A DNA stretch of 38,430 nucleotides from a virus. Its lineage: Duplodnaviria; Heunggongvirae; Uroviricota; Caudoviricetes. The translations under genes and the position numbers were made by a program. A model generated the notes under the pieces. It had not been told where the DNA came from. It did not search any database and saw only the letters and a list, made by a program, of their open reading frames with translations. Each line of letters opens with the position of its first letter. The first letter of the stretch is position 1. Of this stretch, positions 20,204 to 38,430 are shown piece after piece. The DNA is taken from IMG/VR virus record IMGVR_UViG_2778261428_000003, positions 1 to 38,430 of that record; one strand, 5' to 3'.

Positions 20204-20524
20204 CTAAATCAGATCACCAATGTATTTTGCACTAATTGAAATTTGCATCTGAGGCATTCCGACCACAGATCCATTTAACAGGTAATCACGTCCTCGTTCC
20301 TGCAAAGAAAGACTCAATTCAAAGTTCTTTACCCCAGGGAAAACCGAGGTGACATTTAAATCATGCTGCGATACGCGCAGAATAAGTTGGCTACCGTCAA
20401 TTTTTCCCTGATACGTAAAACCAAAATCTCCGCCGTTTACTGCATTGTTTTTGACAACTACGGTACCATTACCAAAATCACGTTGATTGCTTCTGAAAAC
20501 AACAAAATAGATACCATCTTTCAT
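20204..20524 (-). CDS. Hypothetical 106-aa protein (moron candidate) in an AT-rich island
   Basis: ORF in locally AT-rich DNA between the lysis cassette and HNH, followed by its own intrinsic terminator. Confidence 0.5.
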   Translation of the reverse strand: MKDGIYFVVFRSNQRDFGNGTVVVKNNAVNGGDFGFTYQGKIDGSQLILRVSQHDLNVTSVFPGVKNFELSLSLQERGRDYLLNGSVVGMPQMQISISAKYIGDLI

Positions 20525-21626: not shown

Positions 21627-21953
21627 TTACTCCTTCGAGCTACCAAATTTGTTACCGATTACTCGCATTGCAGCCCCACGAATTGCATCGACACCAATCA
21701 GCCCAACACCGCCACCAATGGCAACAGAAAGAGATTTAGGCCATCCGACATACTCAAGAGCGGATGCAAAAGTCAGCGTCAGAGCACCACAGAGCAAAAT
21801 CTCGAGCGTTTTTCGCTTCCACCCACCACCACCGCCAAAATAGGCAATACGCAATCCAGCCATAACAATCGACATAATCACTGCGCCCAGTGGTGTGTCT
21901 CCACGCCACCAGCTCTGGACCAACTCCAGCCAGGTATTTGGGTTATGAGGCAT
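21627..21953 (-). CDS. Holin
   Basis: 108 aa with hydrophobic helices and charged C-terminus, directly upstream of endolysin. Confidence 0.7.
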   Translation of the reverse strand: MPHNPNTWLELVQSWWRGDTPLGAVIMSIVMAGLRIAYFGGGGGWKRKTLEILLCGALTLTFASALEYVGWPKSLSVAIGGGVGLIGVDAIRGAAMRVIGNKFGSSKE

Positions 21954-22102: not shown

Positions 22103-22127
22103 ACAAAACCCGCTCGACGGCGGGTTT
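22103..22127 (-). terminator. Terminator-like hairpin upstream of holin (tR'-like candidate)
   Basis: Minus strand aaacccgc-cgtcga-gcgggttt followed by a T-rich stretch. Confidence 0.35.
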
Positions 22128-22240
22128 AAGCTGTGTGGCGAAGTAACCACTCTTAACACGATACAATAGTTTTTGCGTACGCGTTAGTGGTTATGTAAAC
22201 TTTCTCCATATAAAAACAGCAAAGAAGCGGATATTTTGAA

Positions 22241-23269
22241 ATGGCTACACTGGACGCATTCAGTAGAGTAATAACTCATCATACTATTACGATCGATACA
22301 CAATACCGTACACAGAAAATTGATGATAGCATCAGATCGAACTGTGTTTGCCCAGTACCAACAATGCGTGAACTTGCTTCTAAAATAGTACATTGTAAAG
22401 CAATGATGCACAGTTATGAAAAAGGAGACTTAGTTTTAACTTTACAAGATGTAATATTCTTATCAAACAGAGCCGATAAAAAACCCAGCCATCTTGGTCT
22501 TTTAATTAATGCTGTAGATAAAAATGGAAGCACTACTGTATTAAAAAACATTAATACAGATGTTCGCACCGAAATATCACCAAAACATGAGGAAGGTGAA
22601 GGTTACGAAGTTTCTTCTCATATGATTATTTCTCTAGACGGAAACATGCGAACATATGACATGAGTTTTATGCCAATACCAGGAGTTTCCACAGCAAAAA
22701 TAAATGGTTTCCTGAATAAAGTTCTCTTTAACGTAGCCAAAGATAATGAAGATATCTTTTCATGTAACACTTTAACAAATGAAGTATCAAGTTTAACAAA
22801 GAAAAAAATAAAAGTATTATACAAGCCAGTCTTTGATATATCTGGAAAGTTAGATGAAGATTTGTTCAATAAAATAAATAAAGAAGGACTTTCTGATGTC
22901 GTTTTGGTAAAGAATGAATACAGAACTATTAATGCGCCAGATGTTAACGCGGCTATTATTCCTAAAGAAAGTACTTTACGCTTAGTACCAAACCATGGCC
23001 CCAACAATGTCCTTGGATGGATAAAATCTGTCTCAAACTTCTTTAAAGAAGATAAAAATGGAGGTTATGACTTAATAAAAATAAAATTCAAAGAGCCAGA
23101 GACAGGATTCACAAGACAAGTTGACCTTCAAACTTCAAATGTAAGGCTGGATGGGCTGGAAAAAACATTTATCAAAAAGAGTGTAATAAATGGTTTTTCT
23201 TCGCGCTTAAAGGATTCTTATGATAGTATTAACATGGAGTTTGTGAATAAGATTATCGAGGTCATGTGA
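22241..23269 (+). CDS. Hypothetical 342-aa soluble protein, component A of a candidate exclusion/abortive-infection cassette
   Basis: Long ORF in markedly AT-rich DNA, opposite strand to the late operon; no recognised catalytic motif; weak local resemblance to RexA (…PGVSTAKINGFL… vs RexA …GPTTSDLTDFL…). Confidence 0.6.
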   Translation: MATLDAFSRVITHHTITIDTQYRTQKIDDSIRSNCVCPVPTMRELASKIVHCKAMMHSYEKGDLVLTLQDVIFLSNRADKKPSHLGLLINAVDKNGSTTVLKNINTDVRTEISPKHEEGEGYEVSSHMIISLDGNMRTYDMSFMPIPGVSTAKINGFLNKVLFNVAKDNEDIFSCNTLTNEVSSLTKKKIKVLYKPVFDISGKLDEDLFNKINKEGLSDVVLVKNEYRTINAPDVNAAIIPKESTLRLVPNHGPNNVLGWIKSVSNFFKEDKNGGYDLIKIKFKEPETGFTRQVDLQTSNVRLDGLEKTFIKKSVINGFSSRLKDSYDSINMEFVNKIIEVM

Positions 23270-23276
23270 GGCTAAT

Positions 23277-23852
23277 ATGATTAGTATATTTTCACATTTA
23301 TTTAGACCGTTTGGTTACCTTTTCATTAAGGGAATTAGTGGTAAGTGCGCATACGATTTTTATGCACCTGCCGGGCTTGCTGTGATTTCTTTTTTTTACT
23401 TTTATTTATTTAAAATACCTACATCAGACCTACTAAAAGATGGCGGCTTTATTAAGTCTATATCTGGATTTGTATCAAATCTGCCAGGTTTTTATATAGC
23501 AGCTCTTGCAGCAATAGCCACTTTCAACAGAGAACAAATTGACTACCCTCTGATAGGAACTAATGGCACTCCTTTTATTAAAATTACACGAACAAAAGAA
23601 AATGGTAGAATTGTTGACACTCAAGAGAAACTTACCAGAAGATTATTTCTGTGCATGTTATTTTCATTTTTAACTGCCCTCAGCATATGCATAGTGATTT
23701 TCAACGCTTTTATCACACCACTAATAAACATACTGAATAATGATATAGCAAACTGGTGCTATATCATTATCTTTTTATTCCTTACATGGCAAATGCTTGT
23801 TTCAACATTTTTTGGACTATACTATCTTGGTGATAGGATTCACATTAATTAA
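23277..23852 (+). CDS. Hypothetical 191-aa four-TM inner-membrane protein, component B
   Basis: Four hydrophobic segments (about aa 29-45, 62-83, 123-149, 160-184); GAGG Shine-Dalgarno; 7-nt gap from component A. Confidence 0.65.
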   Translation: MISIFSHLFRPFGYLFIKGISGKCAYDFYAPAGLAVISFFYFYLFKIPTSDLLKDGGFIKSISGFVSNLPGFYIAALAAIATFNREQIDYPLIGTNGTPFIKITRTKENGRIVDTQEKLTRRLFLCMLFSFLTALSICIVIFNAFITPLINILNNDIANWCYIIIFLFLTWQMLVSTFFGLYYLGDRIHIN

Positions 23853-24207
23853 CTACCATAATGGGGTTTATAGTTATTATTACACCGCTGATAAACCCCA
23901 TGGCAGTCTGCAATTCCTTCCTAATTGTGCCATCTGAACATCTTCTCTTCTTGGCAATAGTGCGTAATGAGATACCAATAACAAAGTGAGCTATGATCAG
24001 CTCATATTCCTCTGGTTTATACTTTCGCAACCGAGCCACACAACCGTCTATCATGATGCCTTCATCATCATCACACTGGAGACGTGACTTTTTACCGTGT
24101 GGTAAAAGTCCCTTGAAACCAGCCGCTATCGGCTGCCAGTCCACACCACTATTTTCTGCTGCAGCCCATGCTCCCCAGCGGTCCAATACTTCATACATAT
24201 CACGCAT
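23845..24207 (-). CDS. Q: Late antiterminator Q (phage 82/21 Q-like)
   Basis: MRDMYEVLDRWGAWAAAENSGVDW...CDDDEGIMIDGCVARL... matches the Q82-type antiterminator pattern; start set at internal Met. Confidence 0.8.
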   Translation of the reverse strand: MRDMYEVLDRWGAWAAAENSGVDWQPIAAGFKGLLPHGKKSRLQCDDDEGIMIDGCVARLRKYKPEEYELIIAHFVIGISLRTIAKKRRCSDGTIRKELQTAMGFISGVIITINPIMVVN

Positions 24208-24224
24208 CAACTTTCTCCACAAAA

Positions 24225-27907: not shown

Positions 27908-28845
27908 CCCCTGAATCCTGCCGGGATCTGGCTGTAGTCCACGTTGTCGTAACTGGATTTGAAATACGGGTCTTCGCGTTTTTCTGTGTATGTGCTGATG
28001 GACGGCGATAAGCGCAGGGAAAGCTCATCCCATTTTTCCCGCAGCTTCGACGGGCTGAGCACGTTACGGCACCAGAACGGATCGCGGCTGACGCGGCTGT
28101 ACATCTCGCAGATTTGTTTGTGAGTACGACCATCCTGCACACACATCAGGCGAATTTCGTTTGCCCAGGCTGTCCAGTTCGGTTCTTTGGGACGAACCAC
28201 CTCGCCGTCACATTCGGCGGCCTGCTCGTACAGGGCGATGATTTTTTTCCAGAGCCACTGTGCGCAGGTCAAATCATCCTGCGTTCCCCACTGGCGCTTT
28301 TTAGGGCTGAATACAACCGCATCAGGATGGCGAGTTAAAAACTCCTGTTCAGCCGTCTGCGTGTCCGGTTGCGAAGCGTCCGGACGAGAAGTTTTTTTAT
28401 CTGACGGATCATGTTTTGATTTTACTGACGGATCCCCGCCAGATTCTGACGGGTGAAAACCCGCTTTTTTGCCAGATTTCGACGCATCAAATTTTGACGG
28501 GTCAGATTTTGATGCGTCAGATTTTGACGGGTCAGAATCTGACAGTTGAGAAAATGCCGCTGCCTGAAGCTTCGCAACGTTAAGCTGATAAACATTCGAC
28601 GCATTGCGGTTACCCTGGCGACGCGCCTTACGCGTTAACCAGCCTTCTGCTTCCAGCCGTGCGATAGCCGTTCTGACGGTACTCATCCCCGCGCCAATCT
28701 GACGGGCAATGGTTTCAATTGATGGCCAGCACACACCTTCGTCATTACTGAAATCAGCCAGGCGGGCCATAATTGCCACGCTGGATAATTTCATGCCTGA
28801 CGCAGCGCAACCATCCCATACATAGCCGGTTAATTTAGTGCTCAT
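27904..28845 (-). CDS. Replication initiation protein (lambda O-like) containing the origin iterons
   Basis: N-terminal HTH; central low-complexity SDPSKSDASKSDPSKFDASKS encoded by tandem DNA repeats. Confidence 0.7.
   Translation of the reverse strand: MSTKLTGYVWDGCAASGMKLSSVAIMARLADFSNDEGVCWPSIETIARQIGAGMSTVRTAIARLEAEGWLTRKARRQGNRNASNVYQLNVAKLQAAAFSQLSDSDPSKSDASKSDPSKFDASKSGKKAGFHPSESGGDPSVKSKHDPSDKKTSRPDASQPDTQTAEQEFLTRHPDAVVFSPKKRQWGTQDDLTCAQWLWKKIIALYEQAAECDGEVVRPKEPNWTAWANEIRLMCVQDGRTHKQICEMYSRVSRDPFWCRNVLSPSKLREKWDELSLRLSPSISTYTEKREDPYFKSSYDNVDYSQIPAGFRG
28395..28550. repeat. Iteron array (about 8 copies of an AGATTTTGACGGGTC-like 15-mer): candidate phage origin of replication
   Basis: Direct repeats visible: atctgacggatc, tttactgacggatcc, agattctgacgggtg, agatttcgacgcatc, aaattttgacgggtc, agattttgatgcgtc, agattttgacgggtc, agaatctgacagttg. 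Confidence 0.55.
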
Positions 28846-30075: not shown

Positions 30076-30750
30076 ATGAAAACAATCCATGACATCCGGC
30101 GGTCTAACGCCAGAAAACTGAGAGATGGTGTTGGCGGGAATTCTTCCTTTGCCACTATGATTGATCGCGAGCCAACCCAGACCAGCAGGTTTATGGGAGA
30201 TGGTGCTACTAAAAATATCGGTGACAGCATGGCACGACACATCGAAAAATGTTTCGACCTGCCTGTCGGATGGCTCGATCAAGAACACCAGACAACGAAC
30301 ATCACAAAAAAACCTGATGTTTCAATCACTAATAAACAAATCACATTAGTCCCTGTCATATCATGGGTACAGGCCGGAGCATGGAAAGAAGTTGGATATT
30401 CTGAGGTTGATTTGAGCACAGCAGAAACGTATCCCTGCCCTGTACCCTGTGGGGAAATGACTTATATCTTGCGGGTGATAGGTGATTCAATGATTGATGA
30501 GTACCGCCCGGGAGACATGATTTTTGTCGATCCTGAAGTACCTGCCTGCCACGGTGACGACGTTATTGCATTGATGCACGATACAGGCGAAACCACCTTC
30601 AAAAGGTTGATAGAAGATGGGACACAGCGTTATCTCAAAGCGTTAAACCCAAACTGGCCTGAGCCTTACATTAAGATCAACGGTAATTGCTCTATAATTG
30701 GTACAGTGATTTTCTCAGGAAAACCAAGAAGATACAAAATCAAAGCCTAA
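30076..30750 (+). CDS. cI: CI-like repressor (HTH + S24 LexA-type peptidase)
   Basis: C-terminal GDSM ... K dyad of S24 peptidases; N-terminal XRE-like HTH; no Shine-Dalgarno (possibly leaderless). Confidence 0.8.
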   Translation: MKTIHDIRRSNARKLRDGVGGNSSFATMIDREPTQTSRFMGDGATKNIGDSMARHIEKCFDLPVGWLDQEHQTTNITKKPDVSITNKQITLVPVISWVQAGAWKEVGYSEVDLSTAETYPCPVPCGEMTYILRVIGDSMIDEYRPGDMIFVDPEVPACHGDDVIALMHDTGETTFKRLIEDGTQRYLKALNPNWPEPYIKINGNCSIIGTVIFSGKPRRYKIKA

Positions 30751-35443: not shown

Positions 35444-37039
35444 ATGGCTGAAGCAGCAAAAAAAACTCCACAAAAGCTGAATGAAAAAAAAGGCTCAACA
35501 TCAGCATCATCACTTGAGATTGTGAATTCACGACAATCAAAAGATATTTATCTTGGATTGTGTGGATATGTTGGATGTGGCATGAGAACGATAAACAAAA
35601 TTATCGAAGAGATATCCAAAGAATGGGGGTATAATGTTGTACACATCCGCATAAGTGCGCTTATGGAAAACCCATTATATTTTGAGCCAGCAGCACTGGA
35701 GGTATCCGAAAGCACACAAGTTAATAGACATTTAAAACTCCAGGATATTGCCAATAAGCTTCGTAAACATTACAAAAAAAATGAGTTGCTTGCAGAAGCT
35801 GCTATTGCAGCAATCGCAGCAGAGAAAAATAATATTGATTATAATAATGATGAATATAAAGGTACTGTCTTCATCATTGATCAATTCAAAAGGCCGGAAG
35901 AAATAGAGTTATTCAGAGTTATATATCAGCATAATTTCTATTTATTAGGAGTTTTGCGCGATTTAGATTACCGAATTCCGAATCTCATTGCTGACGAATC
36001 GACAAAGGACGACCTTCATTTAATTATCAATATTGATAATAAATCCTCTGATCCGTATGGACAAAGAACCGGGGAAACCATTCTTGATTCAGATTTTTTT
36101 ATTAAAAATAACTTCAGCCAAAAAAGTGAATTAAAGAAGAAGATTGATCGGTTTTTCGGTCTTATTCATGGCAAAAATGGTTTAACACCAACTTTTAACG
36201 AGAAAGGTATGTATGCTGCCTTTTCAACATCATTACAATCAGCTTGTTTATCACGTCAAGTAGGGGCTGCACTGTTTGATGATGAAGGGAATTTGCTTGC
36301 CGTGGGTAAGAACGACGTACCTAAAGCTGGTGGCGGGTTGTATAGCAGTGATGATTTTGATAACGATCATCGATGCGTTCACAAAAGTGGTAAGTGTTAT
36401 AATGATGCAAACAAGCTAAAAATTAAAGACCGTATAAAAAGCATATTATCAACCGAAGTAAGAAATGTATTAGGTATTTCCGCAGGACAAACTGTTGCCG
36501 ATATTAATATAACACGACTTCTAAACAAATTAGATAATATTGCAGAAGGCATTTACAAAGACAGCAAAATATCAAGTGTAATGGAGTATTCCAGATCAAT
36601 TCATGCTGAAATGGACGTCATTACATCAATGGCTAGAAAACAAAACGGCGATACTAAAGATAAAATTCTTTTTACGACAACCTATCCCTGCCACAACTGT
36701 GCAAGGCATATTGTCGCAGCTGGAATAAAAAAAGTAGTATATATAGAGCCATTTGATAAAAGCCTTGCTCTTGATCTGCATAATGATGCAATAACAAAGA
36801 ACGAAGAATCATCCAAAGTAATATTTTGTGATTTTGAGGGGGTATCACCCCGCCGCTACCATAAATTTTTCAGACCAACGGATGAACGTAAAGATGATAA
36901 AACAGGGACTGCAAATAAATTTAATGCTCGCTACAAAAATCATATAGATGTTCAATATCTTGATGATTATAGAAAGTATGAGACTGTTGTAGCTAAGAAA
37001 TTTATAAACGAGATTGCTAAACCAGAGTCTCAGCCATAA
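35444..37039 (+). CDS. avcD: AvcD-like antiphage deaminase: N-terminal P-loop-like domain fused to C-terminal cytidine/dCMP deaminase domain
   Basis: Zinc-dependent deaminase signature H-A-E (aa 387-389, SIHAEMDVI) and P-C-x-x-C (aa 415-419, TYPCHNCARH); Gly-rich loop GLCGYVGCGMRT at aa 38-49; 531 aa; AT-rich; between xis and int. Confidence 0.8.
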   Translation: MAEAAKKTPQKLNEKKGSTSASSLEIVNSRQSKDIYLGLCGYVGCGMRTINKIIEEISKEWGYNVVHIRISALMENPLYFEPAALEVSESTQVNRHLKLQDIANKLRKHYKKNELLAEAAIAAIAAEKNNIDYNNDEYKGTVFIIDQFKRPEEIELFRVIYQHNFYLLGVLRDLDYRIPNLIADESTKDDLHLIINIDNKSSDPYGQRTGETILDSDFFIKNNFSQKSELKKKIDRFFGLIHGKNGLTPTFNEKGMYAAFSTSLQSACLSRQVGAALFDDEGNLLAVGKNDVPKAGGGLYSSDDFDNDHRCVHKSGKCYNDANKLKIKDRIKSILSTEVRNVLGISAGQTVADINITRLLNKLDNIAEGIYKDSKISSVMEYSRSIHAEMDVITSMARKQNGDTKDKILFTTTYPCHNCARHIVAAGIKKVVYIEPFDKSLALDLHNDAITKNEESSKVIFCDFEGVSPRRYHKFFRPTDERKDDKTGTANKFNARYKNHIDVQYLDDYRKYETVVAKKFINEIAKPESQP

Positions 37040-37191: not shown

Positions 37192-38430
37192 TTATTCAAT
37201 AGGCTGTCTGTTGGAACCTAAATTAGTGTAAGTAAGAATCGAATCAACCCTATCCCACCATGCCTGATAGGCTTTACGCTGTTCTTCTAGATAATCACTC
37301 TTATCATAAACTTGCCATACCCCTGGCAGTTTATGACCGAGCATTATTTCAGCAATATGAGGCGCAGTAAGATCAGAAAAGTTTGTTCGTGCTGTTCGTC
37401 TCAAATCATGAAGAGACCAATGAGGAAATTGATACCCCAAACGCCGCCATGCGTACTGCATTAAATTGTAAGGCAGCGACTGCAATGATGTCCGACCAAC
37501 TGGCTCCTTGCTTCCTTCCTTGGTAAAAAGCATATCGGAACCGTTGTTCATAGAGATAACGTATTTTATAAGCTCTTCAACCGGTTCAATAATGGGGCGC
37601 TTTAGCGGTTCGCCTGTTATATCACCTGTCTTATGTCGTTCTGGCGGTACAGTCCATACCTTATTAATGAAATCAAAATCATCCACCCTGGCAGTAATCA
37701 GCTCTGAACTACGACAGCCGAAATGCAGCAATAGTTTAATGAAGGCCCGGTATTTGGGAACCATTCGAGAACCATCGATCGCAGCATAAAGAATTTTAAT
37801 TTCATCGTGTGTCAGAAACCGTTTCTTCTGACCTTTACGGATATCCATATCTTTACCCGTGATGTCCGACAGCGGGCGAGTTTCAATAAACTTTCGCTTA
37901 TACGCCCAGACATGGGCCTGCTTTGCGTTAATTAGCAATCGGTCTGCTATTGCCGGAGTCTTAGTGCTAAGAGGCTCCAGGACCTCTAACCAATCATGCA
38001 ATGTAGCTGCATCATGAGGGATACTCCCGATTTTAGAGAACAGATGCAGTTCAAATGAGCGGAGTATCTGCTCAGAACCTTTTTTATTTTTTACACAATA
38101 TGCTTCATACCAGGCACGGATCACAGACTCTACCGTCATGGCTTCAGTAGCTTTGCGTTTTTCTGCCTGCCTGACCAATCGTGGATTGCGGTTTGACTCA
38201 AGTTCACCACGAAGACGGATAACTTCTTCTCTGGCCTCTTTTAATCCAGTTGCCGGGTAAGTTCCGATATCAAGTCGCTCGCCTTTCCCTGCCCATTGAT
38301 AACGATATTGGAACACTACGCGACCTTTCGGTGATACTCTGACAGACAGACCATCACGATCTGATTTAACCAAAACCTTATCGCGTTCCTTTCCAACGAC
38401 TGAACGCAACCACGCATCAGACAGCGCCAT
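37192..38430 (-). CDS. int: Tyrosine integrase, P4-type (N-terminal arm-binding DUF4102-like domain)
   Basis: 412 aa; C-terminal HDLRRT ... LGH ... Y catalytic motifs; ATG is the last three bases of the window. Confidence 0.9.
   Translation of the reverse strand: MALSDAWLRSVVGKERDKVLVKSDRDGLSVRVSPKGRVVFQYRYQWAGKGERLDIGTYPATGLKEAREEVIRLRGELESNRNPRLVRQAEKRKATEAMTVESVIRAWYEAYCVKNKKGSEQILRSFELHLFSKIGSIPHDAATLHDWLEVLEPLSTKTPAIADRLLINAKQAHVWAYKRKFIETRPLSDITGKDMDIRKGQKKRFLTHDEIKILYAAIDGSRMVPKYRAFIKLLLHFGCRSSELITARVDDFDFINKVWTVPPERHKTGDITGEPLKRPIIEPVEELIKYVISMNNGSDMLFTKEGSKEPVGRTSLQSLPYNLMQYAWRRLGYQFPHWSLHDLRRTARTNFSDLTAPHIAEIMLGHKLPGVWQVYDKSDYLEEQRKAYQAWWDRVDSILTYTNLGSNRQPIE

Follow-up and report, generated by a model that had tools for sequence, protein, structure and literature searches.

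What is the function of a pair of AT-rich genes lodged, against the direction of the late operon, between the antiterminator and holin genes of a lambdoid prophage? This question is raised by a 38,430-nucleotide stretch of a Caudoviricetes virus (IMG/VR record IMGVR_UViG_2778261428_000003, positions 1 to 38,430; hereafter, the window), which represents an SfII-like temperate Escherichia coli prophage. Two adjacent plus-strand genes, referred to here as A (22241-23269) and B (23277-23852), form the cassette in question. A preliminary description, based on the letters of the sequence, had presented the pair as a candidate undescribed exclusion or abortive-infection module with a RexA/RexB-type architecture. 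We find that both proteins are members of PDC-M53, a catalogued family of candidate defense systems, and that lambda RexA is the top structural match of the predicted model of A. In our judgment, the cassette is likely a two-component abortive-infection system of the Rex type, carried as prophage cargo and belonging to the same family as RexABpp, an experimentally validated system of Pseudomonas putida.

A mobile two-gene cassette between Q and the holin gene

Gene A encodes a 342-amino-acid (aa) soluble protein with a pI of 8.2 and no hydrophobic segment, the presumed infection sensor or activator, and gene B a 191-aa protein with four hydrophobic segments, centered near residues 38, 73, 137 and 168, the presumed pore or channel effector. 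The genes are separated by 7 bases, with a GAGG motif 6 bases ahead of B's ATG, and thus form a tight operon. On one side, the cassette is bounded by the minus-strand antiterminator gene Q (23845-24222; PF06530, 2.8e-45), with the convergent B and Q overlapping by 8 bp at their stop codons; on the other lie the minus-strand gene of a lambda-family holin S (21627-21953; PF05106, 5.7e-25) and a lysozyme gene on the same strand. The assignments of Q and the holin agree with the RefSeq annotation, in the case of Q that of an identical E. coli locus. A prophage of E. coli strain GPEC620-622 is 100% identical over the region and has the two cassette genes annotated as hypothetical, and the cassette itself is carried by 15 of 5,426 complete E. 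coli genomes.

The GC content of the cassette is 33.1%, compared to 51.0% in the remainder of the window, and a similar contrast is found at third codon positions (27% in A and B versus 43% in Q and 46% in the holin gene). The cassette is horizontally mobile two-gene cargo that occupies the Q-to-holin interval in an orientation opposite to that of the late genes, as the preliminary description had proposed. Its account of two linked, AT-rich plus-strand genes of 342 and 191 codons, the first encoding a soluble protein and the second a four-transmembrane (four-TM) protein, was likewise borne out.

Both proteins are members of the PDC-M53 family

PDC systems are a set of 145 candidates derived from genes embedded in BREX, DISARM and type I restriction-modification (RM) loci, and among them PDC-M53 (cassette CAS_00171) is listed as a candidate without an assay (Payne et al., bioRxiv 10.1101/2024.01.29.577857). 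When compared with the PADLOC models, protein A matched four PDC-M53A models, the best at 2e-31 over residues 8-340 of 342, and protein B matched PDC-M53B at 1.7e-54 over residues 4-190 of 191. As the two genes are also adjacent and co-oriented, with A preceding B, the locus is a PDC-M53 system by PADLOC's own criteria, as judged from its sequence. Both matches span the full length of the proteins and the family was already catalogued (2023-24), so that the suggestion of an undescribed or new family does not hold; RexABpp, and probably Sucellos, can be placed in the same family, as described below. The related remark that neither protein carries a motif assignable to a known defense family is correct by eye, yet the profiles do assign them, namely to PDC-M53. 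Kiwa, which had been named as a system to check against, was not recovered: searched at E<=10, PADLOC returned PDC-M53 models only, with no match to KwaA or KwaB, and the Pfam search did not return DUF4868 (KwaB). Kiwa and all other PADLOC families were therefore rejected.

Neither protein matched any Pfam or NCBIfam model, and PHROGs places both in families of unknown function (phrog_8257 at 1e-99 in the case of B). Profiles of A and B searched against Protein Data Bank sequences retrieved nothing meaningful, with Rip1 (9oox) appearing at no better than E 1.1. The A family diverges fast: a close search returned only 34-38 Enterobacterales proteins, and HMMER, run exhaustively over 1.84 billion representatives, yielded 308 relatives, nearly all of 310-360 aa. 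The mean column identity is 17%, five PADLOC models cover the family, and only L88, G121, S125, H127 and D234 are near-invariant. A separate observation from the representative library concerns a 5,191-aa protein (P0296), of which 24 separate stretches match the A-family profile, the best corresponding to profile positions 12-97, i.e., the N-terminal domain of A; this pattern suggests a giant protein built of repeated A-type N-terminal domains.

For B, a word-indexed search identified 609 homologues, and a genome scan found the family in Gamma-, Beta- and Alphaproteobacteria and beyond. The alignment revealed three conserved motifs, LPGFYIAALAAIATF, TRRxFL..F.FLTA and WQ...GLYYLG, and polar residues that are kept inside the helices (R121, R122 and Q172). 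Of 120 B-family proteins, 113 contain the GLYYLG motif, compared to none of the 186 other proteins examined.

The predicted structure of A points to RexA

The top structural match of A's predicted model was lambda RexA. According to this model, A has the two-domain fold of RexA, which is related to that of RdgC, and its relation to RexA is at the level of the fold. The AlphaFold model of B, a confident one (predicted local distance difference test score 86.6, predicted template modeling score 0.82), consists of four long helices, the second and third of which are joined by a loop containing a beta-hairpin.

RexABpp and Sucellos in relation to the PDC-M53 family

RexABpp (PP_5643/PP_5644) is encoded by prophage P1 of P. 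putida and its protection against phages was measured; both genes are required for defense, RexApp binds DNA, and overexpression of RexApp leads to growth arrest and membrane permeabilization in a RexBpp-dependent manner. In the same study, HHpred tied PP_5643 to RexA at 98% (Sci Rep 2026, PMC12894663). We compared RexABpp with the cassette via the termini of PP_5643 and PP_5644, as deduced from cloning primers, and a proxy locus, rather than via full sequences. The primers place MHRTATFV at the start of RexApp, and MLIGQLANP and GLYYLGYKLQE* at the start and end of RexBpp, respectively. The proxy, a Pseudomonas sp. 286 locus retrieved by the genome scan for the B family (L067), contains a gene for a CI-like repressor followed by genes for a 330-aa protein that starts with MHRTATFVD and a 188-aa protein that starts with MLISQLTKP and ends with GLYYLGYKLQE*. 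This pair matched PDC-M53A at 1.5e-149 and PDC-M53B at 4.8e-71. Its A protein aligned with the subfamily of window A in hhalign with a probability of 91.5% (E 8.7e-7, 288 columns; identity of about 20% to window A), and its B protein shares 40% identity with window B (E 6e-30). Because these three termini of RexABpp fit the L067 pair, which is itself a strong PDC-M53 member homologous to window A and B, RexABpp very likely belongs to the PDC-M53 family, as judged via the proxy locus and the primer-derived termini.

A second validated system, Sucellos (SclA/SclB), is cassette 68 of the Vibrio cholerae superintegron. It is structurally RexAB-like with no match to the Rex Pfam models, requires both genes, acts by abortive infection with a predicted SclB pore, and is found 'often in Salmonella' prophages (bioRxiv 10.1101/2024.07.02.601686). 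According to DefenseFinder, Sucellos is present in P4-like satellites of Enterobacter and also in a temperate phage of Nitrosospira, and Sucellos and PDC-M53 were both reported in ~98% of the same S. Enteritidis isolates. Going by description and distribution, Sucellos is probably the same family as PDC-M53. No V. cholerae locus came up in the one genome scan for the B family.

The A-B pair is conserved and resides on unrelated mobile elements

In 73 of the 78 B loci chosen as species representatives, the gene that immediately precedes B on its own strand belongs to the A family, and three of the five remaining loci are interrupted by contig ends. The Q-to-holin slot hosts the pair in lambdoid prophages of E. 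coli, Citrobacter and Salmonella and in Shigella phage SfII (58% identity for A and 64% for B), and the holin families differ among these hosts. Outside the lambdoid phages, the pair was found in a P2-like prophage of Halomonas that has a type II RM system nearby, in a PM2-like prophage of Vibrio, and directly after the integrase gene in P4-like satellites of Serratia, a region that Rousset et al. are said to have described in 2022 as the P4 defense hotspot. In Endozoicomonas, Shewanella and Vibrio it also stands alone at plain chromosomal sites. This spread over unrelated mobile elements is the behavior of accessory defense cargo rather than of a morphogenetic or regulatory phage gene, and the combination of a widely conserved B with a fast-evolving A was also counted in favor of a defense role.

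Two side observations concern this distribution. Shigella phage SfI (JX509734 / NC_027339) carries a genuine lambda-type rexA (100% identity), and SfII carries the PDC-M53 cassette. In addition, a 2.2-kb contig of an Erysipelotrichaceae metagenome-assembled genome contains a B gene 100% identical to that of the window, preceded by the same upstream block; the contig is almost certainly a mis-binned fragment of an E. coli prophage.

A probable Rex-type mechanism and its alternatives

Since RexA tops the structural matches of A, and since a relative within the family, RexABpp, acts in this way experimentally (PMC12894663), we prefer a Rex-type sensor-effector reading of the cassette, which was also the reading favored by the preliminary description. 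By analogy to its relatives, the system would operate as follows. In the lysogen, a conserved promoter belonging to the operon (22173-22201) would drive its transcription, against the direction of the late operon, which is silent. A, probably a dimeric clamp that binds DNA non-specifically, would sense the superinfecting phage through one of its proteins or through an intermediate of replication or recombination. Activated A would then switch on B, which would oligomerize within the inner membrane and form a pore or channel, and the resulting loss of membrane integrity or potential would halt the infected cell and so keep the invading phage from multiplying. What the analysis shows directly is the anatomy of the genes, their family, the fold of A, the membrane character of B, and the conservation of the pair and of its promoter across mobile-element contexts. 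That A binds DNA and activates B, that B forms a pore, that infection is aborted and that the genes are expressed in the lysogen are all drawn from relatives and are to be read as predictions.

Several findings weigh against this reading, foremost the sequence comparison with lambda Rex itself. Neither A nor B matched Pfam PF15969/PF15968 at E<=1 or the PADLOC RexA and RexB models at E<=10, and none of 144 A-family members matched Pfam RexA at E<=0.1. As positive controls, lambda RexA matched its own models at 1e-97 and 9e-110, and lambda RexB at 8.5e-92 and 8.6e-61. Comparisons of A with RexA and of B with RexB by hhalign, which used single sequences, a 27-sequence profile, a 144-sequence A profile and an alignment of four Rex sequences (from lambda and from Klebsiella, Hafnia and Salmonella phages), gave probabilities of 0.03-0.5%. 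The RexA alignment could not be made deeper, as the viral loci number only seven, all nearly identical, and the phage records 19. With all hhalign probabilities below 1% and no match to Pfam RexA, sequence homology of A and B to lambda RexA and RexB was rejected, and the faint local resemblances to RexA and RexB noted earlier are due to chance (hhalign, 0.1-0.5% for RexA and 0.2-0.5% for RexB). B, moreover, has no specific structural relative: it matched generic helical bundles only, and RexB was absent among its BFVD matches. The link to RexABpp runs through a proxy locus and short primer-derived peptides, and at the C-terminus RexApp (VYNKQSRLMV) and the L067 A protein (...IIKSIFALMV) share the last three residues only. 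The cassette lies outside the immunity region, and its expression in the lysogen therefore hinges on a predicted promoter. Even in P. putida, activation of RexB by RexA was not seen as a two-hybrid interaction, and in Butters, a Rex-like system, the two proteins have swapped roles (PMC12894663). Finally, the evidence for the E. coli/Shigella member is computational.

The case of Butters raises the prospect that here, too, the logic is reversed, i.e., that A is a toxic effector, with DNA as one conceivable target, which B sequesters until infection, as in mycobacteriophage Butters gp30/gp31. This variant is described among the five known Rex-like systems (PMC12894663), and the DNA-binding-type fold of A, with near-invariant G121, S125, H127 and D234, could provide an active or binding site. 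We nevertheless regard it as improbable: the toxicity of RexABpp depends on RexB and appears as membrane permeabilization (PMC12894663), B is more conserved than A, and the R121, R122 and Q172 residues within its helices are more in keeping with a pore-type effector than with a passive anchor. A different type of alternative assigns the pair no anti-phage role at all, but a housekeeping or fitness function in the prophage: it might bias the choice between lysis and lysogeny in a RexA-like manner, set the time of lysis, or stabilize the prophage as a toxin-antitoxin-like addiction pair. Lambda RexA does bias the bistable switch independently of RexB, the cassette adjoins the lysis genes and is convergent with Q, and the overexpression toxicity of relatives resembles that of a toxin-antitoxin pair. 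Yet the A-B pair also resides on chromosomes with no surrounding phage, as well as in P4-like satellites and P2-like and PM2-like prophages whose lysis and regulatory modules are unrelated, and even among the lambdoid hosts the neighboring holin families vary. Furthermore, homologues are embedded in BREX, DISARM or RM loci according to the PADLOC authors (bioRxiv 10.1101/2024.01.29.577857), and the RexABpp relative confers measurable phage protection (PMC12894663), leaving little probability for such a role.

Least probable, and by our estimate very improbable, is superinfection exclusion at the envelope, with B blocking DNA injection or the receptor in a Sie-like manner, A serving as an accessory and no cell suicide taking place. 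While B is indeed a small prophage-encoded inner-membrane protein, and many prophage membrane morons act at entry, obligatory pairing with a cytoplasmic protein of a DNA-binding-type fold is foreign to Sie-type systems, and both the validated RexABpp and the Rex-like Sucellos, the latter a probable member of the family, act through growth arrest or abortive infection. The Rex-type sensor-effector reading thus remains the one we favor, and it provides a likely function and mechanism for a hypothetical-protein pair found in E. coli, SfII and many Salmonella and Citrobacter prophages.

A conserved promoter block and a possible antisense late transcript

Upstream of A lies a regulatory block of ~60 bp on the plus strand (22140-22201), which is conserved across lineages and contains a sigma-70-type promoter, its function being predicted. 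The promoter, as proposed in the preliminary description, comprises a -35 element TTGCGT (22173-22178), a 17-nt spacer and a -10 element TAAACT (22196-22201). It is weak by consensus (7/12) and absent from the listing of a consensus promoter scan, yet the TTGCGT-17-TAnnnT arrangement is kept in eight diverged lineages with an invariant -35 element. Across the loci of E. coli, SfII, Citrobacter, Salmonella, Enterobacter and Limnobaculum in which the block was found, the -10 element takes the forms TAAACT, TAAGAT, TATCAT, TATTCT, TAGTAT and TATATT. With T1, A2 and T6 fixed while its other positions drift, the element shows the pattern characteristic of a working sigma-70 promoter on the plus strand.

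The invariant core of the block, TTTTTGCGTACGCGTTA, includes the palindrome GCGTACGC, which may be an operator, and a sequence further upstream, CCACyCTTAACAC, is invariant as well. Because the spacer, including GCGTACGC, and the upstream sequence do not vary, we suggest that an additional regulator binds the block.

Between the cassette and the holin gene, the terminator scan detected an intrinsic terminator on the late-gene (minus) strand (22106-22127; AAACCCGCCGTCGAGCGGGTTT then TGTCGTTTCT), and an equivalent hairpin occurs at the corresponding place in the Salmonella loci. A 77-bp element (22105-22181) that comprises this terminator and part of the promoter block is ~90% identical in many lambdoid phages and may be a portable terminator/promoter unit, similar to those flanking morons. 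Phages 434, mEp460 and ev243 are among those that have the element, and the places where it occurs do not correspond to the lambda Q-S interval.

On the minus strand, no convincing promoter was discerned by eye in 22128-22240, and when the late promoter pR' was sought by comparison with lambda, positions 43800-45600 of lambda had no DNA similarity to the cassette region. A promoter-like minus-strand site, TTGCCA-18-AATGAT, does lie within the 3' end of B (23792 to 23763), 53-82 bp downstream of the Q stop codon, a position analogous to that of lambda pR'. This site overlaps an inverted repeat (23737-23770) and is compatible with putative antisense late transcription. The repeat, which we noted within the coding sequence of B, is a perfect one of 14 bp (ATAATGATATAGCA / TGCTATATCATTAT, with a 6-nt loop); it corresponds to the variable loop between helices 3 and 4 of the protein and is followed on the plus strand by CTTTTTATTC. 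It could be the late promoter or qut region, or an internal attenuator. Should the Q-dependent late promoter follow Q directly, as it does in lambda, transcripts of the late genes would cross the entire cassette in antisense.

A cargo slot downstream of Q

The same promoter block (invariant TTTTTGCGTACGCGTTA followed by TAnnnT) was found to precede two unrelated cassettes at the same position and in the same orientation. One, in phage vB_EcoS-569R4 (block at about 973-1055 of locus L024), encodes a soluble protein of 286 aa and a four-TM protein of 182 aa; its counterpart in Stx2a_1447, an Stx2a-converting phage of E. coli O157:H7 (block at about 2850-2935 of locus L111, minus strand), encodes a soluble protein of 343 aa and a four-TM protein of 179 aa. 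The latter cassette has Q on one side and the tRNA-stx2 region on the other, and thus lies upstream of the tRNAs and stx2AB. At 31% and 38% GC, respectively, the two cassettes are AT-rich, and neither gave a PADLOC match or a match to the A and B profiles; the vB_EcoS-569R4 pair also lacked any Pfam or Rex-profile match. With no profile matches, assignment of the two cassettes to PDC-M53 or Rex by sequence was rejected.

Given that the same block precedes all three, these sequence-unrelated pairs of a soluble and a four-TM protein share one docking site, and its shared use suggests a hotspot for Rex-like systems. We tentatively propose, while rating it as somewhat less than an even chance, that the interval downstream of Q in this group of lambdoid phages, to which SfII and the Stx2a-converting phage belong, is a dedicated defense docking slot, in which a promoter block of the phage backbone serves at least three unrelated, AT-rich cassettes of a soluble protein (~290-345 aa) and a four-TM protein (~180-190 aa). 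If this is true, convergence with the late operon might allow the phage to turn off its own suicide module at induction, through late transcripts that run antisense to it. Should the other two cassettes prove Rex-like, the Rex-type sensor-pore superfamily would be larger and more diverse than the five or six systems described. The shared promoter block and the three unrelated cassettes by Q point to a cargo hotspot that can be mined, with one of the cassettes lying upstream of stx2 in an O157:H7 phage.

Elsewhere in the window, two further genes were noted. A plus-strand open reading frame of 531 aa (35444-37039), adjoining the minus-strand integrase gene (37192-38430), is labeled an anti-phage dCTP deaminase in RefSeq, the coordinates agreeing by offset, and is therefore probably a second defense gene, at the integrase end of the prophage. 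A minus-strand open reading frame of 106 aa (20204-20524; ~39% GC), downstream of the lysis genes and labeled a GrlR-family regulatory protein in RefSeq, is probably another cargo gene (moron).

Comparison with known systems

The cassette resembles lambda rexAB in that it is prophage-encoded, consists of a gene for a soluble, presumed sensor followed directly downstream by one for a small four-TM partner, and has an orientation that would allow expression in the lysogen; at the level of the fold, the two-domain RexA/RdgC architecture was found in A. In contrast, A and B are longer than their lambda counterparts (342 aa versus 279 aa for RexA, and 191 aa versus 144 aa for RexB), B has a beta-hairpin loop between helices 2 and 3 and was not structurally matched to RexB, and rexAB lies in the immunity region, co-transcribed with cI, whereas the cassette lies between Q and the holin gene. 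A repressor-like gene at 27977-28651 of locus L002 corresponds by offset to ~30076-30750 in the window, its distance from the cassette being stated as ~4 kb. The Rex-like systems of mycobacteriophage Sbash (gp30/gp31) and Gordonia phage CarolAnn (gp44/gp43), which pair a soluble, dimeric RexA-like protein that binds DNA non-specifically with a membrane partner, are also two-gene prophage exclusion systems, yet unlike the cassette they derive from Actinobacteria, and a Sbash protein matched B in Foldseek only non-significantly (E 1.1).

Within the family, PDC-M53 owes its definition to genes lodged inside BREX, DISARM or type I RM loci, and PADLOC assigns it no fold or mechanism, whereas here it occupies the Q-holin slot of a lambdoid prophage. 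The RexABpp genes lie downstream of a CI-like repressor gene, in the operon of the repressor, while the window cassette has its own predicted promoter between Q and the holin gene; and whereas an HHpred signal to RexA was reported for RexABpp, hhalign found none for the window subfamily against a shallow, four-sequence RexA alignment. Compared by description and distribution, Sucellos mirrors the window family.

Taken together, these comparisons place PDC-M53 and, very likely, RexABpp in one widespread family with a predicted Rex fold, probably along with Sucellos, which should assist annotation and avoid double counting. Systems of this kind and their probable mechanism have already been described, and the current understanding of them is not overturned. 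What the window adds is a new E. coli/Shigella member of a catalogued family, and its analysis proved most useful for two by-products: the conserved slot next to Q, and the joining of PDC-M53 with RexABpp, and probably with Sucellos, into one family.

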